Shown here in pieces: positions 7,252 to 53,327 of a DNA stretch of 64,000 nt. The first letter of the stretch is position 1; each line of letters opens with the position of its first letter. The translations under genes were made by a program, and so were the position numbers. This stretch comes from Botryllus schlosseri. Taxonomy: Eukaryota. The notes beneath the pieces are model-generated. The model was not told where the DNA came from. It worked only from the letters and a program-made list of their open reading frames with translations, and searched no databases. Location of the stretch: positions 20,090,001 to 20,154,000 of the forward strand of contig CM119371.1 in assembly GCA_051294905.1 (NCBI GenBank). Direction: 5' to 3'.

Positions 7252-9848
7252 CAAGTAAGTAAGTAGTTCTGAAAACGATCCTATTTCGTTCACATGGATT
7301 GTCAAAAGCTACAAATTTAACTATGCGAAAGGTGCCGAGCTCGATTCCTATTGATGCATACCAGAAGGCATCCAATTTTCGACAGCATAAGCCTTCGTCC
7401 GCATCATGGGATGAAAATGTTAGTATTGAAATGGAAATGCGATATTAATCCTCTGTTTCCTCGAATAGCACGTTTTGGAAAATATCATGGTATGGCGCCC
7501 TCCCCCATATTATAAGGCCTGTAGTTTAGTCGAAGAGCAATACGGAGAAGTTGTATAGGATACGGTGTAAACACTTTGCGCGATTAGTAAACGGTAATAA
7601 AAAATATGGTGGACCGTAAAATGCCATATTGTGTAGTTTCATTTCCGGAAATTACAGGCATTACTACACTTGATTTTATACTTCAACAATCAACATGTAT
7701 GTTATCTCGACAAAAGAACTGATGTTAATTAGAACTCAAAGTATATGATACTGGGAATTGAAAGTGCAATATAATTATACCACTTCTAAAAGCGGAACAT
7801 GAATTTCATGTCTTTAGTCCAGAAAGTTTCAAAGGTGGTGTGCTAAAACAGCTCTAAAATTAAAAAAAAAAGTCAGAGTCCACTTCCCCAGAATAGAACT
7901 CGTCATGGACGTGCCAGATTACGATATGATAAGTAGCCTAAATGCTTGCTAGTTTCCAACGTAGTGATGAGCCATATATACTGTCATAAAATATTTCATA
8001 TTAGTGAAGAGCGACAATGTGGTGTGAACGGAACAACGCCAACCCACAACCTAAATTATATTCCCCGATACTTCTGTTAAATCATACTGGTGACTCCGTA
8101 TCCACTGCGCGCGAAGCGCGACGAAAATTCTGGGCTTTTCTCAACTTTTGTGAAAATTAAATGTTAATACTCCGTGAAAACAGCTTCGAAATTTTTCAGG
8201 CTATCTTCCCGACTGGAGGATTGAACTACTTCCACTTTACAAACTGAATATAGCGAAAAGTAAGTAAGTAGATCACAAAATAATACGAAAAAGACGTAGA
8301 AGTAGAGAGAATCAGATCTACTTGAGCAAGTACCAGAAGTAGAGGAAAACTACTTGAGTGCTTCGAAAAAGTAGAAGTACTTCGTTACTGACCACCTCTT
8401 TGCACTCCCACTAATAATCTGGTATTTCCGCATCGTGACCTCATGACGCATGAATGTTGATACAATAAGGTCTCTATATACGTTCTGCCTCTTTCCTTAT
8501 GGAGATCTATACCTCACGGCCCAAAGCGATGATACTACTTTACACAGCCGTCAAGTGCAGAAGTAGAATTGCGGAAATGATCAATCCCTCTGATTAGATG
8601 CATAGAAAAGTGAATTTCCACGAATTGCAGATAGACTTTCTTTATTATTTAAATCAGTCATTTGTACGCTGTATCCATTTTACGTGTTTCATTTTATTAG
8701 TCGATCCTAAAGAATGGAGGCGTTTTTGGCTTCGGACAGACCATTCCGGGTAGTTTGCAAAGTTTTTCCACGATGCCCTGAAAATAGATTGAAGACTTAA
8801 ATTCTGCGCATATATACTATTACATAAATCGATATTTCACAAGACCGCTTGTGTATTGTAGCCTACTTGTTTTGAAATTATCATTTACATGCACATCGCA
8901 TACTAATATTCACCGATGGCAACATTAGGGCATAACGACCGTTGGCGAAAGGGAGCATATACACCGACGTAACAGCTGAATGAAGTGTTACAGCCAGTAA
9001 CTCTTGAATACATTCGACCATAATACTTATTCAAATTTTCAATTCAATAGTTTTTACAAATGGCAACTTTCAAAATTCCAAGATGAATCTTCATATTCAA
9101 CGCGAAGCACTGATGACACTAGAAATAGCAGCAATTTCCTAAAATATATTTAGTGATCGTAATATGAGGTTACATCGCGCAGTTTTGACGATAAAACTGC
9201 ACCCATAAGAGTGACGCAAAGTTATTTCAAAACTACCTCATTATATTTGAAAACTGGAGGGATAAAATTAGGAATCTTTGCCTAAAAAACTGCCACAGTA
9301 CAAACTGGAAGGAGTCTCAAGATACCACAACTTGAGTAAATGGGAGCTGAACTTTGATCTAAGTCAAATGATAATTTGAAAATACTGTATACAATAATCA
9401 ATTTCTAAATCCGAGTTCACTTTGGATGAAGCTGTGATTCATAATTTAAGCCAACTTCCATCAAAATCTTTGGATCTGAATTAGAATCAATGACCACTTG
9501 ACCAGGTAGTCAATATGCTGAATTCAAACATAATTTATACATCGGGCACATAATATGGTACCAACCATACAATGCTACTATACGCAGCAGCAATAGGCAG
9601 GTATGTTACGTGGCTGGAACGGCCGTAACATTTCCACAGCGAGGGACATAATGCCTGGGTAATTTAATTATCTAGAGAATTCCGAGCGTAGATATTGGCA
9701 ATTTTCCGACATAATTACAGTCTTTACTAAAATTGCATTCAAATTAATGAGGGTAATAATTACAGGTTACATATTTAGCTACTGGAGGATGCGCAGCGCA
9801 GATTTGTTTTCATGCAACTGACAATGCATTGAACTGGCTGAGACTAAC

Positions 9849-10017
9849 CACGTCTCTCTTCCTCAGGCAATATCCATTAGCGGGGAACATGACCGAATCT
9901 TCGTCGCAAATTGGCTTCTCTACGCAAACCAGGCGTCTTTTGGGATCGCACGTACCGACGATACCGAAGGGCCCGCCGCATTTCTGGTAGAGTTGTTTCG
10001 AGCATACGTCACAGCAT
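9849..10017 (-). CDS. Single IGFBP-N-terminal (IB) domain protein A, coding exon 2 (R-CCDVCSKQLYQKCGGPFGIVGTCDPKRRLVCVEKPICDEDSVMFPANGYCLRKRDV)
   Basis: Acceptor ttttgttcctgttag; phase 2 matches exon 1; donor GTG|gttagt; IB-domain Cys pattern CxCCxxC-x7-CGG-x5-GxC; colinear with paralog exon 29753-29942. Confidence 0.9.
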
Positions 10018-10591
10018 CTAACAGGAACAAAAATTGAATAGTTACATGAGTTGTAACATGAATGACAATTGTTGCAACGTACATACTTTTCTTATAATTG
10101 TGTCGCAAACTCGCGATAAGCGGCTTATGAGTAGACTTCGAAATTTTGAAGAAGCATGCTTGAACAAAACTAATTTCAGATTCAAGATTCAAATTAAATA
10201 TCATCAACCATCTAATTAAATCATCACCCGAAGCATCGAAGACTCGTGTGGTACATTACTTATTTTGGTTACAAAATCGATAAAAACAAATCGAGGCTAA
10301 AATAAGCCATCAACTTGTATTTGCATTTTACTTGTGTGCGTGAGCATAACCAACTAAGACGTGTCCGGTATAATTAACGCACAACGCTCTCTAATAATAG
10401 GTTTAAATGCAAACCGTATAAGTTATGTGCATAAAATGCATGTCATAGTGCAGCCATACACACAAGTCGTGATATTCTTGTCGGTTAAGTGAGTTGCGTG
10501 GTTTCTCCAGGTTAGTATGCGTGCTTTCGAAGAACGCTCATTTAGTTCTTGTGCATGTTTGTCTATGACTATTTAGCTATAATAACAAGGG

Positions 10592-13699: not shown

Positions 13700-14640
13700 A
13701 TCACTCATGTAATCGATGCATCCATTTTATCTGTTCAGTTTTTTTCGATTCGATAGAGAAACTGCGTGCGGTGTGCCGGACAGACCGTTCCACGCAGTTT
13801 GCCAAGTTATTGTACGATGCTCTGAAAACAGATTGAATACTGTCACAAAGTCACCTACGCACCTATATTCCAAACAAAGGCATGTAGGCTGTACTAGCCG
13901 AACACATTACATTGTGATCGAATTCAAACGATGAGGTGAATTACTTTTTAACAAATAAAGTTTTTGTGACTCCATTCCATTGCGTTGCACGGGGTAGATA
14001 TTTGTTTCGTTTAAAAAGATGGGATCCACTATTATTCAGTTCACTAAACCCAGTTTATGTCAGCACAGAGGGTTTACGTATAAGTTATAGCTCTCCCATT
14101 AGTTTCCATTGTTTTGTGTATGTTGTCCGTCGTTATTTTGCCTGTAATGTAGATATTATTATTGACATACTTGAAACTGTATTGTCGGCATTGTTACAAT
14201 GCCAATTCCATGGGCTGCAACATTGATTGTTACGTCATACTTTTTCATATTTGTCTTACTCTGAATCTGTTCGAATCCCTTTAGTGCAGTGGTTCCCAAA
14301 CATTTTTTAGACACGGGCACTTTTATTTACAGTAAAAAATTCACGCACCCCTAATCGTCATATCACAAAATGCAACCAGAATGATAGCAATCCCAACGGA
14401 TAGTTTGATGGCATGGAAGGTTATAGCTGTTGATGAGACAATTCTCAAATATGAATTTCGGACTATACGCAGAGCAATAACTATGAATTGAAGGTAAATC
14501 GCGCAGCTTCGCGCCACCCTTCATATGCTTTCACACCCTCCAGGGTGACGCCCCTTAGCTTGAGAACCACTGCTTTAGTGCGTGAATAACTCATGATGAG
14601 AGGCACCCGAACTGTCTTCGACTTCAAATATATCTATATT
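13700..14640 (+). mobile_element. Penelope-like retroelement relic (GIY-YIG endonuclease C-terminus and 3' region), interrupted by MITE 14287-14572
   Basis: Frameshifted peptides RHVGCTSR, VARGRYLFRLK and STIIQFTKPSLCQHRGFTYKL*LSH match the copy at 50492-50731; downstream DNA also aligns. Confidence 0.7.
14287..14572 (+). mobile_element. hAT-type MITE (~290-bp family; also 18731-19039, 49810-50102, 63352-63669)
   Basis: TIRs CAGTGGTTC / GAACCACTG; perfect TSD CTTTAGTG (14279-14286, 14573-14580). Confidence 0.9.
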
Positions 14641-15850: not shown

Positions 15851-15908
15851 AGGCAACGCGGATATGCTTTCATCTAACCTACATGACATTGAACTGTCCA
15901 AAACTCAC

Positions 15909-16065
15909 CACGTCTCTCCTTCTCAAGCAATATTCGTGAATGGGATACAATAACAGAATCTTCATCGCCAATCGGTTTCTGCACGCAGACCAAGCGCTTT
16001 TTTAGATCACATATACCGTACATTAGCCAGGATACGGCGCATTTTTGGTAGAGTTGTTTTGAGCA
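15909..16065 (-). pseudogene. Pseudogenised IB-domain exon 2 (CSKQLYQKCAVSWLMYGICDLKKRLVCVQKPIGDEDSV/ frameshift /YPIHEYCLRRRDV)
   Basis: Clear homology to 9849-10017 including donor GTG|gtgagt; 5' part (CCxV codons and acceptor) missing; +1 frameshift; one Cys changed to Gly; no exon 1 found. Confidence 0.85.
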
Positions 16066-20621: not shown

Positions 20622-22476
20622 GTGATAACTGATAGATATGGTGAGTGATATAGTAATTGCGAGCACTGATTGACTTGTTTTACGAATTAAGGATTTGGAA
20701 ACGTATCACATAACAATTTGAAGCACATGTCGTATAATGCGTAATGTGATAATGGCAATAAAGAAGGTTTGAACTAAACTATATGGAAAAAATGATTTCT
20801 TGTGACTTTAATTACTACTCAGACTTTACCATATTACCTTTATTTTGAATCTGGATTACGCGTAATCGTGGCATATTAATGAACATGCTTCAAAGTAAAC
20901 GAATTTCGTGTTCAGTTGATACAGCCTATGATTTTAGTCATTCAAAAAGCAAATTTTATGTTTTGAATTCTAAGCAACCTTTCGCGGGCCGCACAGAATA
21001 GCTTCGCGGGCCGCACTTTGCCCAGGTCTTCCCAAGGGTAACGTTGGGCGCGTTACGAGTTCTCATTGCATTGCACCTATCACTGTGGAAATGGATTTCG
21101 GCATTCGTTCATATCAAATCAAATACGCTGATTTTCAAGACACGATAGTGTATTTCAAGAAATTCAGCTACAGAATTTCATTTAATATCATAAAATACTC
21201 CCCAATATCCACATAAATCGTATGATGTTATTTTTGAGTGAAGTCATTTAGTTGCTGTTTATCACTAGCCTGTACAGGTAATATTTGCATAAGACAGATA
21301 ACGTTTGCACGATAATTTTGCTTACCTGGAACTAAATCTTGAGAGGTCCGCGGGGTACGTGACGGTCCAAACGGGGTCCTCGAAGAAAAAACGTCGAGAG
21401 CCACTGGACTAAAGTTTTGGCACGATCCTTCACGACATTTTCCCTTCTGATTTTGCCCCTTGGATAAAATAAATTTAGTGAAAGAACGGTGAAAAAAAGC
21501 CAGCCTGAAAACTAGGACGAATCAATTCGATTTTGTGAGATAATTTAATTAGCGCATAAACTAGTGTGATAGCTCTCAGCTCGTCCCGTCCACAATGGAC
21601 CATATTCCGCTGCACGTTTGGTAACGATGGAATGGAATGAAATAGGCCTACACGAACTATTGCGGATGTTGATAGTTTTCACGGTGAGGGAGAGCAACGA
21701 CAAAGTGCTTTGAATTAGAAAACAAACACATGACGATGACTCTATCTAGGCATTTCATCTGATGTGTTTGACTGCACTCACCGCAATTGATCGAGCATTT
21801 TACCGTCTTCCGATTATCTCTAGGCCGCAGGTACAGGTCGATTTAGCACACAATTTGTCTCTGTAATATGAGATGCATCTTTTTTTCCAACGGCAGCGAA
21901 GCTATTTGTTTGTTCCTAAGCATGGCAGGTGGAGGTGGCTTGGTGACGATATTGAATACGTCAATAGTCATCGTGGTTGTTGACGATAGCTAACAATGTA
22001 AAAATTATCCCTCTACTTCTTTCTCTTTCATACACCGCACAAACACTGAATACGGCGTCCACCTGATGGATATTCTGTGACGTCATAGTGGAAAACCATC
22101 CGTTCCAGACTCATCTCAAAATTACACCAAACAACAACTACATATTATTGGTGTATTGAATATATGCTTCAAGACCCACATCAGTAGCGAACGTCAGTAA
22201 TACGGTGACTCAAACTCGAAATGTGGGGAATACTTTTTCAGTATCACGTAATAATATCGAAAACAGCCAACTAGTAGACATCACAACGAACACTATGATC
22301 AATTGTTCCATTTACCATATTATTCGACTAATAATTTTCGACTGACTCTTATCAGGAGCGAATGTCTGTAAAGGAGGTTAACCAATATTCATTTCTGTCG
22401 AAAAGGTCCGAAGGTACTAAACGTAACATTATCAACATATTTTTTGTGGCGATATTCAAATTTAGTACTTCTAAAG

Positions 22477-24607: not shown

Positions 24608-24750
24608 ATGAATAGCTTCACAGTAAGTCTCATAGCAGTATTAGCGTGTGCTGTCGGTGTATCGGCACTCAGCTGTTTGCCCTGTCACAAGGTTACTTGC
24701 AGGAAACCGATGTGCAAAGCCGGCGTTACTGTTATCAAGGGTATATGCGG
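24608..24750 (+). CDS. IB-domain protein B, coding exon 1 with signal peptide (MNSFTVSLIAVLACAVGVSA-LSCLPCHKVTCRKPMCKAGVTVIKGIC)
   Basis: aaaATG at 24608; upstream acceptor ttttttacaatag (24589-24590); signal ending V-S-A; donor GG|gtaagg; 143 nt, phase 2. Confidence 0.9.
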
Positions 24751-25720
24751 GTAAGGATTGTAGGAGATTATATTATTAAGGTGTTCCTTCCTGTTAAGTC
24801 TTAAACCGAGTAGTATGTTATATATGACGGATGGAATTTCGTACGTGTTGATATTGATTGTGAGATGAAATATGCGTATACCCCTCTAGTAGTATGGTTA
24901 TATATTCTGTGAAAGACAAGTAACGAAAAATGAGATAATATACTTTCACATCCGGTGATCTATTTATAACGACACGTTTTTAAAATGTTAAATATCAAAT
25001 ATATCGCGTCAGGCCGATATTCCATAACTGGTTGCCTTTCTACATATACTGATGTTTGCCTGTCCGTATTAATCAACGCCAGTTTGGCATGTATAATGAC
25101 TTTGAATTCGTGGTTCATTCGAGGTAAGTCCGCGATAGAACTTTTAATGCGATACCATCGGTAATCCATGAAGTATACCGTTATCGAAAATTTGGAATGC
25201 GCATGAATGTTAAACTGGTGATGTTTAACTTGTTACAAAAAACGATACTATTCTACTTAAACATTCTCCTAATCAGGAATTCACAATCTCAGTTTAGGCC
25301 CCATTAGTCGAACATTGGTAGCATTAAGATTTGGATATATCCCATAGGTAGTTTGTACCTTATAAAGTTCACCACGGTGTGTCATATAGTCGGGCAACTG
25401 CTTTATTCGGCCATAATGATCGAGAATGCGAAAAAAGCAAGAGTTACATAGATAAAACTCAGTTAATTCGGAATACTATCTGCTCAATTCAGGGGCTAGC
25501 AATTGCTATCGTTAGGTTATGTCGAAATACAGGACTTGGTTCGTCTAACCCAGGGATTCCCAAACTGGGGTGGCGACCCTAATGGGATCGTTTGCGTATT
25601 CTCTGGGGCCTCGGAGACAAAAATTAAATACTAATGATTATTACATGAATGACAATTAATAGCTATCAGCAGCTCATTTCTGTATATTTAAATTCAATTG
25701 AATAGTATATTCATATTGAA

Positions 25721-25761
25721 ATGAACCCGAATATTTTCGACTGACACTCGTCAGGGGTAAT
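25721..25761 (-). ncRNA. Minimal type I hammerhead ribozyme motif (minus-strand arm)
   Basis: attaccc-CTGACGA-g(tgtcagt)c-GAAA-atat-TC-gggtt on the minus strand; predicted cleavage between 25729 and 25728. Confidence 0.6.
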
Positions 25762-25963
25762 CGTCAGCAACTAGTAGAGAATTCAAAAGAACAGCGTGTA
25801 TCAACAATCGCAACACAAAATATGACGTCACCGGCACGAAATGTCGAATACGAGAGCGTTCAATGTACTATTTTTATTCGACATTTCGTGCTGGTGACGT
25901 CATATATTGTGTTACGATTGTTGATATACGCTGTTCTTTTTAATTCTCTACTAGTTGCTGACG

Positions 25964-26004
25964 ATTACCCCTGACGAGTGTCAGCCGAAAATATTCGGGT
26001 TAAT
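25964..26004 (+). ncRNA. Minimal type I hammerhead ribozyme motif (plus-strand arm)
   Basis: Stem I attaccc/gggttaat; core CTGACGA (25971-25977); 1-bp stem II; GAAA (25987-25990); palindromic ATAT loop III; UUC cleavage triplet ending at 25996. Confidence 0.65.
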
Positions 26005-26845
26005 TTCAATATTAATATACTATTCAATTGTATATTGAAGTTCTGTACATCCAAGAAGCTGTTCAAATATTTCATTTCATTTTTCAAAATAGAGGACAAC
26101 ACTGTTTCTGAGGAATGCGAACCCGGCAAACAAGGTTTCAGATCAGTCGAAGTGTCATTTTAAATCACCCCCTGCTGTGACTTACAGTTGATGTCTGGCA
26201 ATCCATGAAGAATAAAGCGTTGGGAGCGTAATAAAAATTAACGAGACGGAATTTTTCCTTGCAGGCAAACTACAAGTGACCAGAATTGTTATGTGTTAAC
26301 AGTATGATAAATACACACACGTTCGGCACAGCCCGATAACTTTTAGATCGTCGTCTGTATTTCGCGGGATGCAGTATTTTGCGTAGCATTTATTGACTAT
26401 ACATCGATTGGATGAAGATAGAAATCGTTCCAGAAGACCTATATACATTGCTATAGTCTTTATAGAGTTTTTAATCTATAGAACGGAGGTTAAAAAGTTA
26501 TTAATTGCTCTTATTGCGCACGAAAACGCCAGTTTCGCACATTGGCATAGGTTTGGCGAGGGTGCTGACCATTTTTCAGTAAACTGCACGCCAAATTGAG
26601 ATGTGGGGTCGCGCAACATTTTCGAATCGAAATGTTTGCGAACCCTTGGTCTAGCGCAAGATGAGGAACTATGGTGAAACAATGACGATGCATTTAGTAC
26701 CAATCCACTACGAAGTCATGTAAGGCCGTGCATGTTTCAAAGTCGCTTTTATGTCGATACAAGTGTGTCCAGAATGGTAAAGAAAAAGCCGTTTCAATCA
26801 TTGTTTCATGGCTTAGTACTATGCTTGAAAATCACTTTATTATTC

Positions 26846-27672
26846 CCGGGTTGTCAGATTGGCCCGCTTGGGGCCAAATTCTATAAATTTGTCCCTTTTT
26901 AGCGGCAGTTGGCCCCTCAAAATACTGTTTGGCCCCTTGACCATTTATTTTCAATATTTGGCACTTTTCGAAATTAGTTGACACATGTTATCAAATAATA
27001 TATTTAAATAAATCTCTGTCCGAAATCGAGCTGACAATGCTGACAATGTTTATGCCAATGCAAAAGATTCGAGTGGAAACACTGTGTGAAGATTTTGAGG
27101 CACAATATGAAGATTTGGAATTGTTGTTGTAGAATGTAGTCACTGTTGCAATTGTAGATACAGATTGGTGAGCATGTGGTCGAAAAAATCTCTAAAATGA
27201 CTTGCGGCAAAGTAGCAGAAAAAATAACTGAAAAGGAGTATCCTGATAGTACTCAATGATTGGTAGAAAAAACTTCAATATAACTGGAGAGATTTTTGAA
27301 GAAAAAATACCTAAACGTTAGGTGTATAAGTGTCAAATGTAAAAAAGCTATTCTGGTAATTTTTAGTAAAAATATATATATTAATTGATTAGAATTTTAA
27401 TAACACTCGTGTTAAGAACAAAAAGTTGAATTTTACGATTTTATATTCAGTTGGAAAGGGCTTCTAATATAATCGCAGTTATTGTAGTTGGATTCGGTGA
27501 CCAACAGTACTATCAACAACATAAAACTGTAATTCCAAGTGATTGACAACATGTATATGGGTGATGTTACAACGTTAAAGACGTTGCCACCGTTATTATG
27601 TATTATTGACAACGGTATTAACGTTAATAAATGATTTGGCCCTTTTTTTCCAAAATCTGTCTGACAACCTTG
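26846..27672. mobile_element. hAT-type element (GGTTGTCAGA termini, TTGGCCC motifs)
   Basis: CCGGGTTGTCAGA / TCTGACAACCTTG; TSD TATTATTC vs CATTATAC. Confidence 0.6.
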
Positions 27673-28563
27673 CATTATACCAACCCTACATGAGTGTGAT
27701 ACAGAGCAATAGAGCATTTCTTGAATCGCTTAGCACTGGACAATACAATTAACATGCGTGTGTTATGAGATCGGGGCCAATTACGGCAATATCGCGCAAC
27801 CTTAACTATTTTATTACACAACATTAGAGCATCGTTAAGGCGTTGTGTGCCTTTACGCATGACAACGAAACGAGAAAAGTGATTTTCCACTTAATTTGAT
27901 ACCGTACTTAGAGCCTTATAACGCAGATGCCAAAATGAGTCACCTTTTGACATCGCTAAATCATATATCACCATGACAATGCCACACATCCCTTGATCAT
28001 TGACTATGGCTTTGAAGTCTTAACATTACCTTGAATCTAAGATATTGGTACTTAGATAGAGAGTATGCATTGGTTACATATGAGATATAGAATTGTTTTT
28101 AAATATAGTGTATTTAGTCAGTAAAATAGAATTCCGTAAGATGGTGCCATAATACTGTCTTAAAGTTGATAAATATGACAGCATGGTTGCTCAAATTAAT
28201 TATTGACTGAATCTATAGTAGCTTTCTCGAGTAGAAATTAGGCATTGTTTAGTTTTCATGTCCAATTACAAGTAGAATTAGACATTTTCAAGAGTGAGTA
28301 GAAAACCAATACCTGTCTAACAATAATAATAAAGTAGTTTAAGGAAACAGACTGCAGCCTGGCGTTGCACAGTGATGTGGATCAAGCGCCGTTGACAGCT
28401 TTCAAGGTTGTAAATTGCATCTTCTCAACTGATGAAAGTCTAATAACGTTACAATTTGTCTTGAATTTCCGAAATTCTCCTCAGTTGCTTACAGAAAACG
28501 GTTTCTGAGACAATTTCTGTCGTAAAAATTTGTAGGAGTCTGCCGCAATACTATATTCTAGTC

Positions 28564-29267
28564 CAGAGTTTCTCAACCTTTTTGTCTTCGCGGACCCCTT
28601 TGGGACCGTCACGGACCCCGCAGACCCTCACGAAGTTTTTGTTCAAATTCAGCTCAATTATCGCACAATCGTCATCTGCCTTGTGTAAATGATACCTGTA
28701 GCCTGAGTGATAAATGTTTCTTGCTGTATATTGATTATGGCTTCCCTGTGCCATCAAACAGAGATGAGATAAGAGAAAAAGCGGTCAAGCACGAGTGATA
28801 TGGTCATGCACAGTTAGGTAAGACCTGACGTCATACCTTACTACTCTACAGGGAAGCACCATCATAATTTATACAATAACCCACGTAACAATAAATCAAA
28901 ATGACTTTTCTTGAAATATAAGACCATACGAAACATGTAGAAATTTGGTTGACTTCTATTATTTCAAAGCGAATTCTGCACCTGCATTTCTTGAAATATG
29001 TGGTCGTGTCTTGAAAATCCGCGCCGTCGATTTGACATGAACAAGTGCCAAAAATCCATTTCCCCAAATATAGATGGTGACGAATGTAATAATAACGCGG
29101 AACGCTTCCGACGACACATTTGGGTACAATCGCAACAAATTGGCAAACAAGCCCGGCCATTTTTATCTAGCAGCTTATACTGAAGTTATTATGGAAAAAT
29201 GGTTATGTATCACAGGAGAAAACGGATTTTTGTAAACATTTCGAAGTCACCCGGTTGAGAACTGCTG
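28564..29267. mobile_element. hAT-type MITE
   Basis: CAGAGTTTCTCAACC / GGTTGAGAACTGCTG; TSD TTCTAGTC vs TTCTAATC. Confidence 0.75.
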
Positions 29268-29752
29268 TTCTAATCTAATGAATATAAAACAGAAAAAGTA
29301 GATATTTGGCTTTCCGTTGGTATGCAAGAGAAAGTAAGCGGAAGTAGCCACGTGAATAAGTAGCGTGAATGGGATAGCTGGAGTCTATACTTTCATGTTT
29401 CGAAATATAAGAAGTACTTCGCTACTCTGGGACTACTATCTGGATCTCATAGTGTTATTGCAAAACATATTCCTATATACTTGTTCTATGTTCGCTTATT
29501 TTACTTCCCATGCTGTTAATATACAAGAGGAAGTAAGCGGGCATAGTCAGTCGAGCAAGTAGCACGAATAGGTTAGTTGGAGCCTATACTTTGATGTTCC
29601 GAAAAAGAAGCACTTCGTTATTGTAGATATCCTGTCTTTGTGTTACTCCGAAGCATGTTGGCCATTCTTATATTTTTGCTCCATCTTCGCCCTTACAATT
29701 AAATTTTAATCTGTGGTCATTTACCAAAACCACATATCGCGTCTTTATTCAG

Positions 29753-29942
29753 ATGTTGTAACGTGTGCTCGCAGCAACTTTATCAGAAGTGCGGCGGATT
29801 GTGGGGTACCGATGGACGATGCGACCCTAAAAAGAGCTTGGTCTGCGTGAAGCGGCCAATTTGTCAGTCGTATACTCAACGGCCTGCTGACCCCATTGCT
29901 ATTCAACAAACGACTGGGGTTTGCATGAAGAAGTATCACGTG
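29753..29942 (+). CDS. IB-domain protein B, coding exon 2 (G-CCNVCSQQLYQKCGGLWGTDGRCDPKKSLVCVKRPICQSYTQRPADPIAIQQTTGVCMKKYHV)
   Basis: Acceptor tctttattcag; splicing rebuilds the GICGCCNVC IB motif; donor GTG|gtgagc at the same position as in paralogs; 111 aa to this point; terminal exon unresolved. Confidence 0.9.
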
Positions 29943-30339
29943 GTGAGCATTCCCATAGTATACACTGTCCTTCTCATACAATGGATCATCTTTATAACTA
30001 GTTTTTTACATACAACATTTACTTCGAGGATTAGTTCGAGATTCTCTATACATGCCGAGTAGGATAGTTCGAAAATTGGTATTTAAATAAAATTGCGGCT
30101 AATAGCTAAATGTTTTAGTTTGACTAAAATAACAGAACGCGCAAAATTTGGCTTTATTCCAACGAGTAGCAGTGAATCAACTTAGAGCTGGAAATATATG
30201 AAATTATTATAAAACATATTAAAAAACATAAAACAATTTCAAATACTACCGTCTACGAACGATATGAGCATGTATTTAAAAGGACCGAATTTAGTTATCT
30301 TAAGTAGTTCAACATCATGGGTCATCTTACACACCGGGT

Positions 30340-36300: not shown

Positions 36301-36532
36301 ACCTATGCGTATTTAGGGAGGTTCCGGAGGCTGTAAATAAAAGTTGCAAAACCTTCTCGTAATTACACGTTGATCAGATGTCCATAACTTTATTTCTTTT
36401 TCCCATGCCCCGCTGCTTATTATCCAGTTTAACCAGTATATTGCGACAACTGCTTCTTGCAATTCATCTGAAAATACAAAATAATGTCCAGATTCACTTT
36501 TACTCAAGGAAAATAGTTTCGTTGAGTAAATG

Positions 36533-36758
36533 TAGGGTTGACATAAGGGACCATTCGGGAGCTGGACCGGAAGGTCAATGTTTTTTTTAGTCAACCATGT
36601 GAACGAAAAAACTGTATTTCGGGCGCTGAGCGCGAAAGTTGACCTTTTTTCAGTCAACCGACCACGAAGTGAGAGAAATTTATCATTCTCCGGATTTGCA
36701 AGGCTGAAAATTCTTAAAAAGTGTCCTCTTTTCAGATTTCAAAAATATGGTAACCCTA
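36533..36758. mobile_element. TAGGGTT-terminated hAT-type MITE (family of 43923-44301)
   Basis: TAGGGTTGACAT / ATGGTAACCCTA; TSD AGTAAATG vs GGTAAATG. Confidence 0.75.
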
Positions 36759-38583
36759 GGTAAATGGTATATTAAACATGCTATAAAAAGGTCAGGCTAA
36801 CAACTGCCTAGTGCCTATAAGTCCACAATATCGAATCGTATATTGTGATGTCGTACGTTGTCAGCACTTTCCTATCCTAAGAAAACGGGATCTACTGTTT
36901 TTGTTGTTGCTGTCATTGGTATATGATAGTGTCCATGGTATTGTGTAATCTATGGTCATATAGCATCAAGATGGTGATTATATAAACTAAACCTCCTGAG
37001 GTGCCAACTTCGAGCACATCTCACTTTGATTTTAGGTCAGTGCATCTCAAACGTTCTTGACTCATCGCACCTGATCATGCTCCACATTATTTGACCCCTA
37101 ACATTCAGAGGTGATTAGTAGAGAAATAAGTCTACCCTTCCGGACTACTCGAGTAGTCCTTATATACTTACATTACATAGTCAAGTAGTTTCATTTTCAT
37201 ACACCGAATATAGGCCTACTCACTCGAATTGTTTTGATGATAAATACTATTGTTGCGTTTCAAATTTTGCGAAGTAAAAGTTATTTCTTGGGTGCACTTC
37301 AATCGGTTTTATGAGTGACGAGTATAGGCCCATTTAGGGTATTTAGTGTATCTCCCGCTATGAAGTCAAACACTCACGAGATAAAAATGGATGGAAGGTT
37401 ATCAGTTTAACATCAATGTCCATCGATCAAGAATTCAACTTCGCAAAAACACGAAAATGAAAGCATGAAGACCCGACAATATCGCGTATCTATCGACCCT
37501 CACCATTCCACCAGCCCTTGGTAACAATTGGTGTTGTAGCTGTGAAATGCACGCTGCAACATACACGGCGCCAGGATCCTAAACTTGATATTCTTTAAAA
37601 AGCTATGGTGCTTCAACAATCGATATACATTTCACGCTAGCCTTACATATGAATTATGCTAGATCTTGGTTAAATGTCTTCCGGATTAATATGAATCGCC
37701 AAGTCGCTGGTACACCACTGAAGAGCGGAATCTAGTTCGTTCGAATTCTACTGTAGTATATAGGTTTAACTGTATATTCGGTGTATCCTGGATTCCCAGT
37801 CACCCAAACTGTATAAATAGAGTATTATTGAAGCAAAGAGAGGGTATTGCTATAAGTTGATATAAATTTCTAAAAGTAGGAAATGTTCTAGAAGAATATG
37901 TCGCGACACAAACCTGGGTCGCGAAGGGTATAATTTTCGGTCGTGGGAACGCCATAGCGATCGTTTAATATGTATGTAATATTTGTCGAATTTCTTGCAA
38001 ATATTAAATATCTTCGCGCTGGTAGCGATTTCTAGTGGATGGTTTGCACGTATAGCTAGGGTCAATCTGTGGGTGCGCTGATGAATAAGCGGGGCACGCA
38101 CGAAAGTCGTAAAAATACGAGGTGGCTTGATCGAGGAAATTGGCCGAGCTTTGATACAAAAGTTGATTTGAATTCGTGAAAATGTTCTTTCGACATCTGT
38201 ATCTCTTTGAAACACAATCGGAGACCGTTGGAATTCGTGAGAGTAGAGTTATACCTGGGTATGAGCGATGGCATTTAAAGGCGAGCCCCATTGCGCAAAT
38301 GCGACGTACAGGGGGAAATGCACCCGAATTTGAAAGTCCGTCCGCCAGACATGTTTCATATGACTGCGGTACGTGCAGTTGTTGTTTGCACGGTCTCAAA
38401 TTCATACATACCCGTGAAATCATAGCATACTAATATTGAGAATGCATTCTTCCTGGCGTATGCGGCTTGGGTCGCCAGATGCCAGTAAAACTAAATATAT
38501 AGTGTGTATGAGTGTCCGTGATCACAAAAATCAGTTTATAAATACTGAAATACGATATTATCTGGTTAATTTGTAGCCTTTGT

Positions 38584-38749
38584 AGAACTTTGGTGATTGG
38601 CACAACGCCTTCAATTGCCCATGACTGACCATGAATTTTTCTATCTTATCATAATCATTACGAAGATAGCATATATGATTATGATAAGATAGAAAAATTC
38701 ATGGTCAGTCATGGGCAATTGAAGGCGTTGTGCCAATCACCAAAGTTCT
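38584..38749. repeat. Perfect inverted repeat, 75-bp arms (38584-38658, 38675-38749) with a 16-nt loop
   Basis: Arms are exact reverse complements; absent from the paralog at 54570-54680. Confidence 0.95.
38709..38747 (-). CDS. Secreted cationic Cys-rich peptide C1, exon 3 (NFGDWHNAFNCP*)
   Basis: Acceptor acatttgtcag, phase 0; stop TGA at 38709-38711; same frame and stop in paralog 54638-54676. Confidence 0.7.
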   Translation of the reverse strand, partial: NFGDWHNAFNCP

Positions 38750-39026
38750 GACAAATGTTATATTAAAATCTCGTTGCATCACTGACTTCCGTATTCATTT
38801 CTTCGTTGCTAAAACTTTACTGATTACTAGTTTTATACCCGAATGTCGTCAAGGATACCTGGATAGTATATCCTAGTATGTATTAATTACTTCTGTGTGT
38901 CACTATATTTAGATACTAACAATGTGATGACATTGTATATGAAAACTATTTGAGAAAAAGCTGATCACTAATGCTTGATACCGTCTTATGTGTACTCGGA
39001 GATCAACAAGCACTGTTGTTATTTAC

Positions 39027-39156
39027 CTGACATTGTCTCAAGTGTTTCTTCGTTTTCTTGCACTTCCTGATAGACGGTTTAATCCATCCAGACTTCGAAC
39101 AGAAATGTTCCCGTTTGTTCAGCTTCTTTGACAAACAATATGGTGTACAGAGACCT
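39027..39156 (-). CDS. Secreted cationic Cys-rich peptide C1, exon 2 (R-GLCTPYCLSKKLNKREHFCSKSGWIKPSIRKCKKTKKHLRQCQ)
   Basis: Acceptor gttttcttgcag; donor CAG|gtaaat; 130 nt, phase 2 to 0; identical structure in the paralog. Confidence 0.85.
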
Positions 39157-39536
39157 CTGCAAGAAAACAGCACATGAATTTAGTATGAAGTGTCATCAAA
39201 TCGAAACAATTACCAATGTATTGGAGGCAGGTGTACCAACTGCTGGCGATTCAGTTAATCAGAAACATTTAGAGACTGTCAATTATTTCAAGTTGGCACA
39301 TGTACCTAAAATGTTCCAGCGTACCCACATATACTAAATATCAAGGAAATTAGGAGAATAATTATTTTTTCTTTGGCCATATCTGTTCGGTATTAGCGAC
39401 AAATGCAATCTTACATTCTCGATGATATGTGTTGCCTGTACTTTTCCATTGAATTGTCTATCTAAGTTAGAAAGCATAGAATCCGAGTTGTTAGTCACAG
39501 ATGTTATTTTCTATATGCATCGATATCAATACATAC

Positions 39537-39652
39537 CTTTCCAGTAGTCTGACATTTTTCGATTTGTTCCTAGGCCTGCGGGCCACGGTGCAACGAATTT
39601 CATGACATATCAAGACGCAAGTCAATGCGGCGAGAATGATAGCTATTCTCAT
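39537..39652 (-). CDS. Secreted cationic Cys-rich peptide C1, exon 1 with signal peptide (MRIAIILAALTCVLICHEIRCTVA-RRPRNKSKNVRLLE)
   Basis: aacATG at 39652; upstream acceptor catcgtctacag (39669-39670); donor AG|gtatgt; 116 nt; three exons join to a 94-aa ORF. Confidence 0.85.
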
Positions 39653-40959
39653 GTTGAAATGTTAAGTCCTGTAGACGATGTAAATGCAAATATTGATGTA
39701 TTGTAAATCACGTTTTTATTAGGAATGTGATAAATAGCATCAAGTAGATATTTTACGAGGTGGAGTCGCAAATCTTTAGTTGTTGCTCATTGTGAAGTCA
39801 TTGTTCATTGTTGAGTTACGATTCAAACGTTGATGAAATTAGTTGTTGCGGCAATTTTGCATTACGGCTATATCTCTGTATCCTCGCCAATTTCCAATGT
39901 CGGCTGTGGTAAGTTATTGCATAAATGTCATAAGATTCCGGCTACGAGGCATTTCCTGCATATTTTATGCTTCTGGATTTGAAATCATCTTAATTAAATA
40001 TAGTAGATATAATACATATATCGTGGCTATGGGCTATCCATGGGGGCAATTATTAAACTCATGAAAATGCACAGATCTGGCTACATACATATCAGCAGAA
40101 TAATATGGTTACGGAGGTAAAGATCCGCGTTTAAAAGTTGAAGCCATAATTATTTTACCAGCGCAATGTACCATTGTTTAAGATTCCGAAAACGAAAATT
40201 GTTTTATGTTGTGATAAGAATACCGCACACGATTCATGGTGACGTGATGCTCAGAACAAAGCTTTTCTACGATTTTGCTGATAATTTGGAGATAAATTAC
40301 CTGGAGCGTAGGCTACGCCGCGTGTTATACCAGTTCATATTCGATTGACTGTATTTTAAGGTACCTGCGAGGCAAGCAATACCGGAAATTCTCCTCAGAT
40401 AGCACGAAGTGCAACATTGCTTACAATCACTATGGCACTATCAATGGTGCGTTGGAAATTTGAACGCGACCTTATGATATTATATTGATGATTGTGGCTG
40501 CACTACGTATCCTAGACTCAAGACAAGAGGTCCCAAACACGCGGCCCGCGTCGTCATTTTATATTTTGAAATATTCGACAATATTTAACTGCTACACATA
40601 TATTTCTGTAGCTCTGAGAAGTTAAAATTCGCCTTCTCCAAAACCCTGAGACTGCTCATCAAATTTCACCATCACATCACTTTAAAACGTTACCATGCGG
40701 TGGAATATATGCTTTTACGTCATATCAACCTGTTTATGATGGTGGAACATGACCCGCTGAGGATTCGTGGCAAAAAATTGTGATTGGACTTGGGCGCGAC
40801 TTTTTTGTGGAATTACTCGAATTCGGAGTAAATGGGTGATAAAATAAAAATGAATCGACTTTAGTTGCATCAAACTTTACATTTGAAGAGTAGATTGCGA
40901 CTCAAAACGCCGTGACTAGGTGCGATCACGAACACAACAAACTATCAGACTGCTATGGG

Positions 40960-43379
40960 CATAGGCACCGACTTTTATTTTTGCATGGGGTGGCGGCAAG
41001 CACGTAGCCGGGGGGGGGGGGGGTGTCAAAACCCCCTCCTTTTGAAACGCAAAACCCCGTCCTTTGAAAATCACCATTCTGACGCTAATGTTCAGTTGCA
41101 TTTCAACAAGTCGTATTATCAGTGGTACGCGGGGCCGCGACCAACTAGCGAGATTCGTATGTGCACGCATATTGCATCGCACAATGCAACGCGACGGGAT
41201 CTCCCGCTGGCATGATTGCGGAATTAGGTCATTGATTGCCGCGCACTCGGCATTCGTCGCTGGACTGAGCAGTAACACGGCGCCCGATAATTCTGGAACA
41301 CGAAAGACAGACACAAATTGTGATTGGAAACGTGCACGGCCAATCAGTATTGATCCCTTACCGCCAACACAATTGGTTTTGAGTAGCTCGCATCGCGACA
41401 ATTGGTTGCTGATTACAACATCGATTTTGACTGTATTGCTGCATTTCCCGATCTACGTTCGCAAAGTATAATTGGATTAATATTATGGGCACTGGAATAA
41501 ATTCCAACTAGCAGGCATACGCAATAACACATTGTTCAACTTTGCGCTCCGATAATATTTATCACAAAAATGGTTCACAAAATATTTTTAACGCGGCTTG
41601 CGGCGCTCATCGATGCAAATAATGCACTTCAATTTGCAGAAGGTGGACGTATATTTGGTAGTCAAATCGCGATAGGAGATGGTGTTTCTCAGAGGTCGCT
41701 ATGAAATCTACGTTTCTAACGATGAGGTCGAATCTGTACATCTGATAAGGAACGTAAGTTTGCTGAAATCAGCATCAGCACGCTGTGCGAAATACATAGT
41801 AGTGATCAATTTTATCGGACTGTACAATCGGCCGGCAAGTTGCGCTGATAACGAAATTGCAGACATGCCGCAAACCTGCAATAATTACAATTACAGGGTG
41901 CGCTGGTCATACCTAAATACCCAGATTCGGCAATGGCAACGAGCACAATTTGTTCAGACGCGGGCATACGTTTTAATCAAAACGATACATAAACAGTAAA
42001 CACAAACAATATTACACTCTGAGATTGTTACTGTTTGGCGAAAGGCCTGCATGCGGACGCGCTAAATCAAACCACCGACGATAGTGCACATGAGATGTCG
42101 ATGAGCCATTTCGCATACAAATGATTCTCACTAATTTGCAGTACGCAGCATCGATAATATGAATTAGTGAATTGGCATTTCAAAAAGGACGGTATTTTTA
42201 GTTATAAATGAGAAACTCCCTGGCTACGCACATGGGTTTTTTTATGCCGACAACGTGCTGGTTAATATCAGCCCCGGGCCGTAGGCCCCGATCAGCCAGT
42301 CGAATTTGATCGTAAAATGATGCACTTTTAATTTTCCACGTGTTATTGCAGTAAGAGCAATATGGGCGCATGCCGCGACCTTATCATTAGAAATACATTT
42401 CCCAAAGCTGTGAAATTCGAGCCGCGATATGACTGCGCTCGATATAGTCCGTTCACAAATAAAGTTTATTGGAACATAGAAGGTTTCCGTTGAAACTAAT
42501 CGAATGAATTCAGAATTTGCGTCACCGAGAATCTCGTGTTGCATCAATTTTGACAACGTAATTCAACGCCGTGCACTGCACAATGCGCAGTATTAATAAC
42601 AAATCAAGCACTGACAAGCTGACAAGTGACACCGAGGGAATACGAGGGCATAAAGCAGACAAGAATTGGTAGCCTGGATGATAGCAAACGAGAAAGCGCG
42701 CATCTAATCAATAATTCCCCGACTTGCCTACAGCACAATGGTGTTCCAAGTATGACATCGCGACAATTGTTTGTACATTATAACGACGTTTGAGCTGCAT
42801 TGTTGCGTTTTCCGATAAAAGTTGGCAAAGCCTTGTTAGAGTAATGAATATGCGCACTGTGCGCAGGAATGACATTCAATTCGCAGGCATACACAAGCAC
42901 ACTGTCCTATATTTCGCGCTCCAAGCCTCCGATTGAAGAGACTATCACGGAACTAACTCAAGAATTATTTTGTAAACGAATATGGGCGCAAATACAATTT
43001 AATTAGGAGAAGGAGAACGTGAATTTGCTCGTCTGGTCGAGAGGAGATGGTGTTTCTCAGCGCAAGCGTGTCGAAATCGACGTCGTAAACGAGGTTGCAC
43101 CGATTGTCTGATTATTACCACGGATTACAATTTATCGGTGCGTTTTAAGCACTAGTTCGTCGTCGCCAACGAAGCTGCGTATTCAATTATTCGCACGCGT
43201 ATCGGTGAATGATAAATAGTTGACATTTACGCGCTTTCACGGACTCGCTAATTGACAGCGCTGATGATTTGAAATCGCAGACGGCGGGCGTTTTATCCTA
43301 TTGTATGGGGTGGCCGCCACCCCATAAATGGGTCATGGGGTGGCTGCGCCACCCCGCCACCCGTAACTCGGCGCCTATG
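40960..43379. mobile_element. 2.4-kb non-autonomous TIR element (CATAGGC termini; hAT- or P-like)
   Basis: CATAGGCACCGA / TCGGCGCCTATG; perfect 8-bp TSD GCTATGGG (40952-40959, 43380-43387); probable further nested element 40997-42234 (CGTAGCC/GGCTACG ends). Confidence 0.85.
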
Positions 43380-43922
43380 GCTATGGGGAAAAATATTATA
43401 TCAAAAGGTCGTAGCTTGCGTTGCGTAGCGTATTTAGCTATCTAAGCAGGTCGAAAAGACAATTGCAATCGTTGCTATTCTGCTGCCTCCTTGACTTACA
43501 TCCTATGCCATCTTGGGTTTGTTTATCCAAGTTATTATCGGCAATTAAAGATGGCGAGTGAGGTATTGGTACGCTTCATCGCTGTAACAATAATGGATTC
43601 CTCGGCGATTGGACTGTTTTATTACTATGGTACATTTATCATTATATTGAAGTAATTATTGATCAGTTCCGATAATAGAAGGCAAATCTAACTCCGATGC
43701 ATGCACGTCACGATGCATTTGTACACTAGCAAGGTGTCTACAATTATTTTTTTGTTACAAACTATGCCAAGTACAACATAAATTTATTCAAAATTTTGAA
43801 AATGTGATTTTTTTCGTGTCAGGCGTGAATTCACAATAGTAAATCACATTTCCACGGTGTTTGTGGAATGCCAGTCTGCAAGGTCCCGTCTAATAATGCC
43901 TTCTTGGAAATACATTATATAC

Positions 43923-44301
43923 TCGGGTTACCAAATTTTGAAAATCTGAAAATAGGACACTTTTTCAGAATTTTCAGACTTGCAAAACCGGAGAAGAATT
44001 CTCAGAAAACGGTAAATTTTTCCCACTTTCCCAACTTTCTCGCTCAGCGCCCGAAATATCGACAGGTGGTTGACTAAAAGAAAAGGTCAACTCTCCGCCC
44101 AGCTCCCGAAATACCCGCCAGAGCGTCGTTCGGTGCTGATTTAAGGCATATCAGTCTCATTTTGCTATAAATATGACCTACATTCTCAAAAAATAGGACA
44201 AAATCTCAAAAAGGAGGACAAAAGGGCGTCCTCCGAGGACACTTTCAAATAAGTCAAAAAAGAGGACAAATCCTCCTAAAAAGAGGCGTATGGTAACCCT
44301 A
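43923..44301. mobile_element. TAGGGTT-terminated hAT-type MITE with AGGAC repeats
   Basis: TCGGGTTACCA / TGGTAACCCTA; perfect TSD TTATATAC. Confidence 0.85.
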
Positions 44302-45244
44302 TTATATACCCCTGTTATTGGTGCTGCGGCCCGCGAAGCCATCAAAAACCAGGAAATTGGCCTGCGAGCATATTTGAGCTCGAGACCTCTGCTCAAGGCC
44401 ATGACACAGTTGATGTTACCAGTTAATATTACATCATAGGATGTCTGGTCGACCTAAGCTCAATTGCTAGTCAGATTGGAGCATCGGTTTGTACATGTGT
44501 ATAAATTCTATAGCTCGTCAGTACGGTTTAAAATTCAATCAAATATCAAAGTTTTGCGTTTTGATTTTCAGCGCGACTAAACTTCATTTCACACTCCCGA
44601 ATTCATGTTCAATCGTTACAGATTTCGTACAGATTAGGTACCGAGTCTAAAGCTTATAAGTCGATGGCTATGGATTCGAAACATAAACGTACGGGACTGA
44701 AATACATAACGATGGCGGCATATCGCAGCGAAATTGAAAATAAACCAATTACGTCACTAACAATACGTCATTTGTGGTATTAATTTATCTATCAGGCTAT
44801 ATGAGGTGGAACTGATTCATGCAATTACTGATATACGACATAGTACTCGTCAGTGGTTTGACTCGAGACAGCGATCTGTCGATATATTGCTTCTAGCAAT
44901 GTCGTTAGGTCTGTCTTCTGCCATATTTTTGAAGCATAGGATTTACAATCACTGCATGGTAGGCTATGAGTGAATCATATATCTAAACTAACTGACAGAG
45001 TCGACTGGTTGAGGTGATTGCAATTCTGCAAAAAAAAGTAATTTTTCCGACGACACCACGTCAATTTCTCTTTAATGCGGGTTTGTCTAATTGACATTTG
45101 CAGGAGGGGAAAAAGGGAAATTGCGCACGTACTTCGCCCTGGAATTATTACCGGGAAAGAAACCAGAGCTGAGGCTGTTTCTTGGCGAAAACGAATGTTA
45201 AAAATAGAAAAGCCGATGCAATATTCAAGTCGGTGTGATAGAAT

Positions 45245-45697
45245 TAGTGTTGCATTCAAAACAAAAATCAATTTGAAACAAACATGTATAAATCAAGGCC
45301 CAATTCCAAACATGTTTTTTATTGTTTTATTTTTTCTTATAAGCCATGACGTTCCTAATATTCGATTGTGACGTCAAAATGAATTGACATTTACAATCGA
45401 AAATGTAGGTTAAATATAGCTCCTCTGACGATTGTACTATTAATGTTGAAACGACTATTTTGAGGGTTCCGACCATCCCATATCAATAAACATCGGCTAT
45501 ATCGAGTGGTAATTGTCCGTAGGGTCATACAACATGTTTTTTTGAAAGTATTTACACAATTATGGCAAAATTTTACAACCTGGAAAATAAAAAATAAAAA
45601 TTGAAAAGACCTTTGTTTAAAACACTGTTTAAAACATATTTAATACATGTTTAAAACAAAGTGTTTTAAAACACAGTTTGTTTTAAATGCAATCCTG
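45245..45697. mobile_element. MITE absent from the paralogous block
   Basis: Ends TAGTGTTGCATTCAAAACAAA / TTTGTTTTAAATGCAATCCTG; TSD GATAGAAT vs AATAGGAT; empty site GATAGGAT at ~60650-60657. Confidence 0.75.
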
Positions 45698-46478
45698 AAT
45701 AGGATACGTTCGAACTAGCACTTCGGTGGTAACATTGAGTCATTACTACAGCTCTAAAGTAACACTGATCAGATTAGACATATCATTTGATTATTGAAAT
45801 AAGGCGATCGATCAATTTCTGGGGTGGTGATCTCGACGCCTGCAAAATCACAGATGACGCTACAAATACGAGCAATCTACGAACATTAACTCCGTTACCA
45901 TGATGCGGAGGCTCTTTTACACAGTGATACTGACAATTCCTATTATAATTTTTTTGCAAACTTATTACCTTAAACCGTTTTTTACTTTTCAAAATCTAAA
46001 TTTTACCAACTACTTAGGTTGGCCTGAAAAACTCTTCAAATAGTGGCTAATCCAAGTACCAGATGGCAAAACAGACCTGAGTACTGCTGTATCCAAAATT
46101 CGCTACCCTAAACTACAGCCAAACCCACGGGATCGATAAATGTACGTGACTAATTTGCGAACGCGATAACAGACTGGAGAATATAAACACAGCGTCTTAT
46201 GTAAAAAGAGTTATTGACGCAACCAATCATGTTAGCCTATTCAGTGGCATATCCGTGACTTTAACCGGTAAGATATCTATAGTATTTTAGTATGTCTATA
46301 TTTAACTCGGATCAAGGCTTGCACCTGTATTTATGTATGTATAAGGGGTTTTATGGTGCTCGACTAGTAGGATATTGTGCACCAGGCCTGAGGGAGCTTT
46401 GAATCAGATATGTCTACACAAAACAACATATTCTGCGGCCTTTGTGTGTGTGCAAGTGTGGATTCTATGTCTCTATGG

Positions 46479-50129: not shown

Positions 50130-50767
50130 TCTTCCTGCTTGCTGCGTTTCAATTCGACTTCATTTTTCGAGTTTAATATATAAATAGCTGGTTCGTGGTA
50201 TAGAACTTGAATATAGCTTTCAATACAACATCCATTGTAGCAGAATATTTAATAAACTCCAAAACTTTTCGGGTGCCTCTTTTCAGGAGTTAAAGGCACA
50301 CTAAAGGGATTTAAACAGATTTGAAAGCAGAACCAAAAAGTTGAAGTATGACGCAACCATCAAATCACATACCATGAGATTCGCATTGTAACAATGGCAA
50401 CAATAACAAACTTTGACGTATACGGTACTATAGTAGCAGCATATGCAATTTGTAAATAAACAGTTACAGTACAAACACGAAACAAAATAAACTAATGAGA
50501 AATTTGTAACTTATAGAGGAAATCTTTTTGTCTACATAAAATAGGTTTGGTCAATTGAATAATGGTTGACTCCAACACTTTTAAATGAAACAAAGATCTT
50601 CCTCGTGCAATTACAGTGAACATATTGTCATTATACCGTTGTGCACAGGCGAGCTGTTCACTCAAATGTTGACCAATCGACGACGCATATGCTTGGTAAT
50701 CGTCACAATCCCCAACTCGATCACAATGCAAATTTCTATGCTGATTTTGGGGGGTTCAAAGACCATG
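50130..50767 (-). mobile_element. Penelope-like retroelement 3' fragment (GIY-YIG C-terminus, ORF 50492-50731); related sequence resumes at 52725-52865
   Basis: SSIGQHLSEQLACAQRYNDNMFTVIARGRSLFHLKVLESTIIQLTKPILCRQKDFLYKL fits the PLE endonuclease tail pattern (SxIxxHL...FxI...LxxLExxxI...PxLCxQK); AAGTATGACG motif repeated at ~50345 and ~52845. Confidence 0.8.
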
Positions 50768-52716: not shown

Positions 52717-53327
52717 AACAGGATATAATTTATCTTTTCCTAATCAGTGCAGCAGCAGCTTTCCATTGATATCCGTTTTATCGAATTTGGCGCTCGGCAA
52801 GCCGGTCAAAAATGGCCGTAAAGTTGCGTTTGGTCAAATGGAAAGTATGACGTAACCCAAATGCAGTGCCTAGAAGTGTAGAAGTTTACTACAAGTTGGC
52901 ATATACGGAATTAAAATAAAAACAATCTGCCTGGTTAAAATGACCATTTTAGTCGAAAAACACCATGAATACCTCAAAGCACAAACAAACACGTTGATCA
53001 ATGTTCAAAACTTTATTTCTTTTTCCTGTGTGCTTGAGTAATAGTACCAACAGGATTCCTCCAATGGCAATAGTTCTGAAAAATAAAATCATTGGCAGAT
53101 GTACTTTTACTTAGAGACAATAGTCGCGTTGGGTAAATAGTATATTGTGTTTCTCAAACGTTCTTGACTCATCGCCCATGATCGCTCTCCACATGTATTT
53201 ACCCGCCTAACATTCAGAGGTAAGTAGTAGAGAATTAAATTCACTCTTGCGGAGGACTTAAGCAGTTTTTATATCGTTATGTTTCCTGGTCAAGTAGTTT
53301 TATTTCTATGCACGGCGCCAGGATGAT

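Follow-up and report, generated by a model that had tools for sequence, protein, structure and literature searches.

A hammerhead-bearing palindrome in a Botryllus schlosseri intron is very probably a head-to-head pair of truncated Penelope-like element pLTRs

Within a 64,000-nucleotide stretch of Botryllus schlosseri DNA (the window), a palindrome with a hammerhead motif on each strand is, very probably, a head-to-head pair of 5'-truncated pLTRs from an abundant EN+ Penelope-like element (PLE), with the PLE tail on the right copy only, and likely arose in one insertion event (Table 1). A sequence-only reading had proposed a non-coding fold-back element that Penelope proteins move as a unit; the centres vary among copies, and the structure looks like an ordinary by-product, truncated and inverted, of a coding PLE. 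The same reading had placed the palindrome in an intron of an IB-like gene. As read from the sequence, it does lie in an intron, which spans 24751-29752, has GT-AG boundaries and separates two Cys-rich exons. A Pfam search with exon 1 gave no match, and with exon 2 it gave IGFBP at E=0.075, below the cut-off.

Table 1. Features of the palindrome, its host gene and a related relic (window positions)
Feature	Position	Strand	Basis
Host coding exon 1: signal-peptide-like start, first half of IB-like Cys domain	24608..24750	+	Sequence reading
Likely true TSD, left copy	25684..25696	+	11/13 match to 26067-26079; from empty-allele arithmetic
Left copy: 5'-truncated PLE pLTR without tail	25695..25850	-	Inverted-repeat comparison; contig loose ends at 25695-25698
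Minimal type I hammerhead, left copy	25725..25768	-	C3 25754, predicted cut after 25729; predicted pseudoknot hexamer 25768-25763
Unpaired 24-nt centre, head-to-head junction of both truncated copies	25851..25874	.	Inverted-repeat comparison
Right copy: 5'-truncated PLE pLTR with 3' UTR, TGACGTCA motif, hammerhead, ORF start	25875..26030	+	Alignment to 50-kb relic
Minimal type I hammerhead, right copy	25957..26000	+	Core 25971-25977, predicted cut after C25996
First 21 codons of PLE ORF	26011..26073	+	13/21 identical to P0009 N-terminus
One-sided PLE 3' tail, about 36-43 nt	26031..26073	+	Family depth, contig ends; counterpart tail in relic
Likely true TSD, right copy	26067..26079	+	X5 contig 11 rejoins window at 26067
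Host exon 2: remaining half of IB-like domain (approximate 3' end)	29753..29942	+	Sequence reading
Related PLE relic: GIY-YIG C-terminus, 3' UTR, decayed hammerhead, ORF start, tail	50173..50755	-	Protein and DNA homology

Both repeat search and RNA folding confirm the palindrome: its arms of 156 bp each have 8 mismatches, and its RNA fold reaches -253 kcal/mol (z -30.6), with 0 of 100 shuffles equally stable. Its boundaries had to be redrawn from the 334 bp given earlier, as the element spans about 25695-26073 and family depth passes the former right boundary by 30 bases. The left copy ends at its inner end with CAATTG and holds an ORF start (ATG at 25714) with six codons. Two contigs continue from the left arm into the centre, and alignment of the 24 nt to the relics favoured neither copy as their origin. 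At several mirror positions both arms jointly depart from the family majority; these shared variants would fit one source template, and also a palindromic master.

A tblastn search with a 40-aa query matched 26011-26073 to residues 1-21 of P0009 (E 4e-6), and the only other six-frame matches of at least 8 to the P0009 N-terminus were a relic near 50 kb (10) and a site at 19157 (8). The start codon of the right copy is ATT here, and a G at 26013, which gives ATG, accounts for 91% of the depth in DNA-like run X1. In the 50-kb relic (minus strand) a GIY-YIG C-terminus (50495-50755) leads into a stop (50492-50494), a hammerhead (C3 at 50286) and an ORF start (50235). Aligned to the right arm, this relic (50170-50420) is identical at 121 of 172 aligned bases, and none of 1000 shuffles did as well. 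The relic protein is 67% identical to P0009 (850 aa, RT plus GIY-YIG), its best full-length relative. P0009, which is a relative and not a member of this family, shows the marks of the Penelope/Poseidon clade: a C-terminal GIY-YIG, DKG at 279 and no CX2-5CxxC linker motif. A search of representative proteins gave 879 matches (E up to 0.001) and nothing new beyond the relatives already found.

Protein homology also substantiates the PLE endonuclease relics claimed for elsewhere in the window, at 50495-50755 (-) and at about 13920-14100 (+). The second relic (13920-14290, +) comprises an endonuclease end and a 3' UTR akin to those of the 50-kb relic, and stops just before the hammerhead, where another repeat starts. 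Two regions that look GIY-YIG-like by eye (37700-38500 and 41046-41468) matched neither Pfam nor PLEs and were set aside. The earlier view of a Penelope-linked, retro-derived sequence that is not a DNA MITE holds good. As expected of pLTRs, the arms correspond to relic sequence located downstream of a GIY-YIG C-terminus, and pLTR and tail contain the first ORF codons. The PLE-homologous arms, the ORF start and the one-sided tail together lead us to a head-to-head pair of 5'-truncated pLTRs. We link the arms to PLE pLTRs by way of an approximately 70% identical relic and the protein of a relative.

Exact family patterns had no match in metagenome contigs or viral contigs. A relaxed hammerhead pattern had no match in viral contigs and found four loci (L001-L004) in metagenome contigs, of which L004, a protein-coding-like sequence with no homology to the other loci, was dropped as chance. 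L002 comes from an unrelated family of the same build, with the end of a PLE ORF, then a hammerhead, then an ORF start, and the frame after the hammerhead matches the N-terminus of P0004; its ORF was not recognised by Pfam, and Atlas and full-length RT homologues recognised it as PLE. In L003, two such PLE ends form an inverted pair in which one arm has a tail; the TSD measures 10 bp, and the unpaired centre belongs to the tail-less copy. With these PLE proteins the GIY-YIG C-terminus in the window was located at 50495-50695 (-). Another palindrome, at 1619-1791 of L001, holds close to its middle a hammerhead-like core (CTGATGA ... GAAA-GGCC-TC).

Only the right copy has the tail, which begins at 26031 and reaches about 26066-26073. 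At the left boundary, contig loose ends have a consensus before 25695 that equals 26031-26060 in reverse complement. A 14-bp direct repeat had previously been taken for a TSD. The repeat itself is present (12/14, or 13/15 in a longer form at 25681/26029); its right copy falls within the tail and is family sequence, and the repeat is therefore not a TSD. We rejected it as such because family depth runs through 26059 and the tail bases encode PLE N-terminal residues. The misreading is explained by the host flank 25681-25695, which resembles the tail in direct orientation at 13 of 15 bases.

An apparent allele without the insertion points to a different duplication. X5 contig 11 aligns to 25495-25660 and resumes at 26067, with 27 letters between, and a second X5 contig of similar depth (about 40) holds the tail and the right flank; X5, a second individual, apparently has a heterozygous empty site at this locus. 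The 27 letters equal 23 window bases (25661-25683) plus a 4-nt insertion of the other X1 haplotype, which places the duplication on the diagonal 25684/26067. From this length arithmetic, with a contig 10-15% divergent from the window, the true TSD is likely 25684-25696/26067-26079. The last 6-7 nt of the tail overlap it, and since the first 6-7 bases of its right copy double as the K-Y-F codons of the element, the duplication measures about 4 to 13 bp, depending on how microhomology is counted.

We compared four of 24 listed runs to 25380-26380 at 85% likeness (in the run listing, shares are below 0.5 in 16 of 20 rows). X1 and X5 are DNA-like; X23 is an RNA run with 150-nt reads, of which about 6 in 100 were read. 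In X1, 34,417 of 3,694,646 contigs fall on this stretch, 8,631 of them only partly, and in X5 the figure is 35,659. Depth gives no copy number; judging from how many junctions there are, copies would run into the thousands. Family depth in X1 begins in the bin 25686-25719 and stays high through 26059, and loose ends gather at 25695-25698 (993 contigs), at 26060 (173) and at 26069 (139). Among copies the left end falls at 25695-25698 and the right end anywhere within 26047-26071, so that instead of the symmetric ends and fixed TSD of a MITE we see a one-sided tail and ragged ends.

How the arms meet also differs from copy to copy. Joints number at least 15 (with 1,132 further), and 10 of the 15 shown link differing points in the left arm (25737-25783) to differing points in the right arm (25932-25971); several long contigs hold a single arm plus tail behind unrelated sequence. 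The variable joints and the single-arm copies fit fresh truncation and inversion at each insertion. The arm-to-arm joints shown end just 5' of the hammerhead (25932-25971), where depth peaks, and truncation points may cluster at this edge of the ribozyme. Some joints themselves reach multi-copy depth: in X1 the joint 25783-25955 stands at 208.9 (3 contigs), where a single haplotype has 7-8. Another joint, which leads from 26065 back to 25695 in both X1 and X5, marks tandem units. Given these, some palindromes could have been re-amplified as units.

Joints of both kinds would be expected had the palindrome been, from the outset, a retrozyme-like non-autonomous unit that is transcribed, processed by its hammerhead and re-inserted whole by PLE proteins in trans. 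Such an origin would accord with reports that pLTRs alone suffice in trans (available text of PMC3846280) and that animal retrozymes derive from pLTRs (available text of bioRxiv 2026.07.22.740005). We consider it very unlikely, in view of the many differing centres, the many single-arm copies with long unrelated sequence upstream, the burial of the hammerhead that a palindrome would entail, and the form of the locus, which is one inverted unit and no direct tandem array.

In the RNA run, 3,956 reads fall on the family, evenly on both strands, and 99% of them continue into unlike sequence; none of the reads (about 6 in 100 read) falls on the flanking intron, and no RNA run containing this locus is listed among the 24. 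Across 25695-26060, A>G/T>C places are 51/149 in X23 versus 15/72 in X1 and 26/122 in X5 (Fisher p 0.19 and 0.15), a non-significant excess, with no matched DNA, that offers a lead for editing of fold-back copies.

For the pair of pLTRs we propose a route modelled on PAc (Poseidon of Anolis; Frangieh et al. 2024, PMC11167929), where, in the available text, both strands of AT-rich DNA are cut and extended and RT starts at two sites bracketing the tail. By this analogy, the PLE protein would nick both strands of an AT-rich site and prime two short cDNAs. One, begun at an outer RNA start site, would share a microhomology of 6-7 nt with the target and become the tailed right copy; a second, begun at an inner RNA start site, would become the tail-less left copy. 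Both cDNAs would stop after about 155-200 nt and be joined head to head, the staggered nicks would leave a duplication of at most 13 bp, and the hammerhead would be a passenger carried in from the pLTR.

The mirror arm could also have formed by fold-back self-priming of the cDNA or from an antisense template, a variant of the same PLE origin whose probability is contained in the one we give to that origin. Fold-back has been proposed for head-to-head pLTR junctions in PMC3846280 (available text), and the arms here share variants against the family majority; fold-back from a tail-bearing cDNA does not, however, predict a centre in the tail-less copy as in L003, and the two contigs that run from the left arm into the centre hint at such a centre here too. 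We regard this variant as possible, on the unlikely side, and prefer the joining of two separately primed cDNAs.

Turning to the hammerhead, the core claimed for each arm is borne out on both strands. The layout is ACCC-CTGACGA-G(7 nt)C-GAAA-ATAT-TC-GGGT, type I, one per strand, with C3 at 25971 (+) and 25754 (-); it has the CUGANGA/GAAA/UH core, stem I closure and palindromic loop III of a minimal type I hammerhead. In the right copy, stem I is 25967-25970/25997-26000, helix II is the single pair G25978-C25986, followed by GAAA and the palindromic AATATT, and a hexamer GCTGAC at 25957-25962 is complementary to loop II GTCAGC at 25980-25985. A strict scan of the window found a single further site, at 31493 (-), which was set aside for its 43-nt stem II region; in a relaxed scan of the window, only these two matches have a palindromic loop III. 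We discarded a further candidate, GAAA-TG-TC near 25838 on the other strand of each arm, which lacks the CUGANGA core of a hammerhead. At 22325-22360 (-) there is a decayed hammerhead-like motif of the same spacing, with a CTGATAA core and loop II AGTCAGT, whose stem I and pseudoknot are mostly gone.

Three families keep the six-base pairing between loop II and the 5' hexamer, each with its own bases (GCTGAC/GTCAGC in this one, GTGCCT/AGGCAC for the relic and TCGGTC/GACCGA for L001-L003), with duplex energies of about -9.4 to -9.8 kcal/mol and -8.4 in the left arm. From this covariation we predict that loop II and the hexamer just 5' of stem I form a pseudoknot. Loop III is palindromic here and in L002 and L003, and non-palindromic in L001 and the relic. 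Rfam hammerhead models gave no hit to the motif at gathering score and none at E up to 10. This null, and the short, non-coding, palindromic and very abundant nature of the element, would suit a MITE of a cut-and-paste DNA transposon with a hammerhead-like motif by chance. We give that reading almost no credence: the ends are asymmetric and ragged, the pairings of the motif covary across families, and the arm is a PLE pLTR with an ORF start, so that both the ORF-start match and the alignment of arm to relic contradict it.

Folded as a monomer without the pseudoknot, the hammerhead costs +5 kcal/mol, and a hairpin between core and loop II competes with it; we predict that the hammerhead depends on its pseudoknot together with a dimer partner or protein. 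When the RNA is folded through both arms, 33 of the 34 hammerhead positions pair with the mirror arm (probability >=0.99), in good agreement with the earlier expectation that a read-through transcript forms about 155 bp of dsRNA. With the ribozyme positions zipped into this predicted duplex, the predicted cut after 25996 is unlikely to occur in the host pre-mRNA. Run X23 has no pile of read ends at the predicted cut, which is a weak test with fragmented reads. Taking the predicted need for pseudoknot and partner together with the dsRNA locking in read-through RNA, we consider this copy to be probably a dead by-product.

The likeness of the host flank to the tail raises the question of target choice. 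Equally tail-like flanks number 32 among 126,526 overlapping window flanks, 8 among 8,564 AT-rich ones and 0 among 3,936 in a smaller sample; should the right TSD copy be ancestral, the likeness drops to 12/15 (79/8,564). The family might pick tail-like targets, through read-out by the endonuclease or RNA-DNA pairing, and the D. virilis endonuclease required tail sequence for recognition (Frangieh et al., available text of PMC11167929). We think this unlikely, as it is one post-hoc case set against three observations: inspected by eye, the target of L003 is not tail-like, the consensuses of loose ends are AT-rich and nothing more, and in the available text of PMC11167929 PAc RT starts at sites non-homologous to the cut DNA. 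If true, it would explain tandem insertion into the element's own pLTR and would give PLEs a sequence-guided targeting step.

Other repeats populate the window. A second palindrome (38579-38755) has perfect 75-bp arms, a 16-nt centre and no hammerhead, and a paralogous stretch near 54570-54700 has one of its arms plus the centre inverted; it is either a fold-back duplication or an assembly artefact. Blocks about 80% identical (36365-46320 versus 52989-63304; 9793-10091 versus 15853-16065 and 29703-30059) indicate local duplication, and with its three or more Cys-rich exons of the IB-like type the window may hold a small cluster of tandem genes. Nested inverted repeats of 396 and 239 bp (59027-59974 and 61399-63090; about 90%), with TGACTCGAGTCAAG subrepeats, resemble MITEs of DNA transposons.

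The locus presents a clean small example of a described type of PLE insertion. Annotators should note that pLTR pairs of this bare, inverted kind mimic MITEs, and that a PLE tail can mimic a TSD. The family is useful material: its junctions, with their two start sites, number in the thousands, its empty alleles are polymorphic, and the pseudoknot of its compact hammerhead covaries. It would lend itself to tests of how inverted copies are built, how targets are chosen and whether fold-backs in introns provide input to RNA editing or to silencing by small RNAs.

The architecture of an inverted pLTR with a one-sided tail is already in print. In the available text of Arkhipova et al. 2013 (PMC3846280), the pLTR contains the first 12 ORF codons (22 including the tail), an inverted pLTR lies next to it, just one of the two sides bears the tail, and TSDs measure 8-10 bp in A. 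vaga. This arrangement is generalised by Craig et al. 2021 (PMC8557442). Like these EN+ PLE insertions, the palindrome has a head-to-head 5'-truncated inverted copy, whose truncation varies among copies, a 30-40-bp tail at one end, a pLTR of about 200 bp with the first ORF codons, and a likely short TSD or microhomology. Unlike those described in the available text of both papers, both copies here are pLTR only, with no ORF body, and make a bare palindrome. Our literature search, with Repbase and Dfam outside its range, found no paper that treats inverted pairs of bare pLTRs as a class of their own. PLE hammerhead variants are said to have been treated by Lunse et al. in 2017.

The hammerhead likewise has close counterparts. 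Cervera and de la Pena 2014 (PMC4209133, available text) describe dual minimal hammerheads on opposite strands, 100-700 bp apart. The motif resembles their metazoan PLE hammerheads in being type I, in its 4-bp helix I, G10.1-C11.1 and palindromic loop III, and in its pLTR location. It differs from those of the S. mansoni families in helix II, which has 7-8 bp there and one pair plus the loop II/hexamer pairing here. Loop pseudoknots are known for hammerheads in general (available text of PMC3088659), and the supplementary hammerhead alignments of PMC4209133 and PMC8557442 may already contain this motif type. The PAc hammerhead is protein-dependent and dispensable for insertion, with no RNA-seq reads ending at the cut in the available text of PMC11167929. 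As in PAc, the hammerhead here adjoins the ORF start and read ends at the cut are absent; the start codon sits where stem II begins in PAc and 15 nt past the predicted cut here. Finally, animal non-LTR retrozymes (available text of bioRxiv 10.64898/2026.07.22.740005; see also PMC7229834) are, like the palindrome, short, non-coding, related to pLTRs and equipped with a type I hammerhead. Retrozymes form direct tandem arrays, each repeat with its hammerhead (bioRxiv 10.64898/2026.07.22.740005), whereas this locus, tandem joints in some other copies aside, consists of one inverted pair plus a PLE tail.
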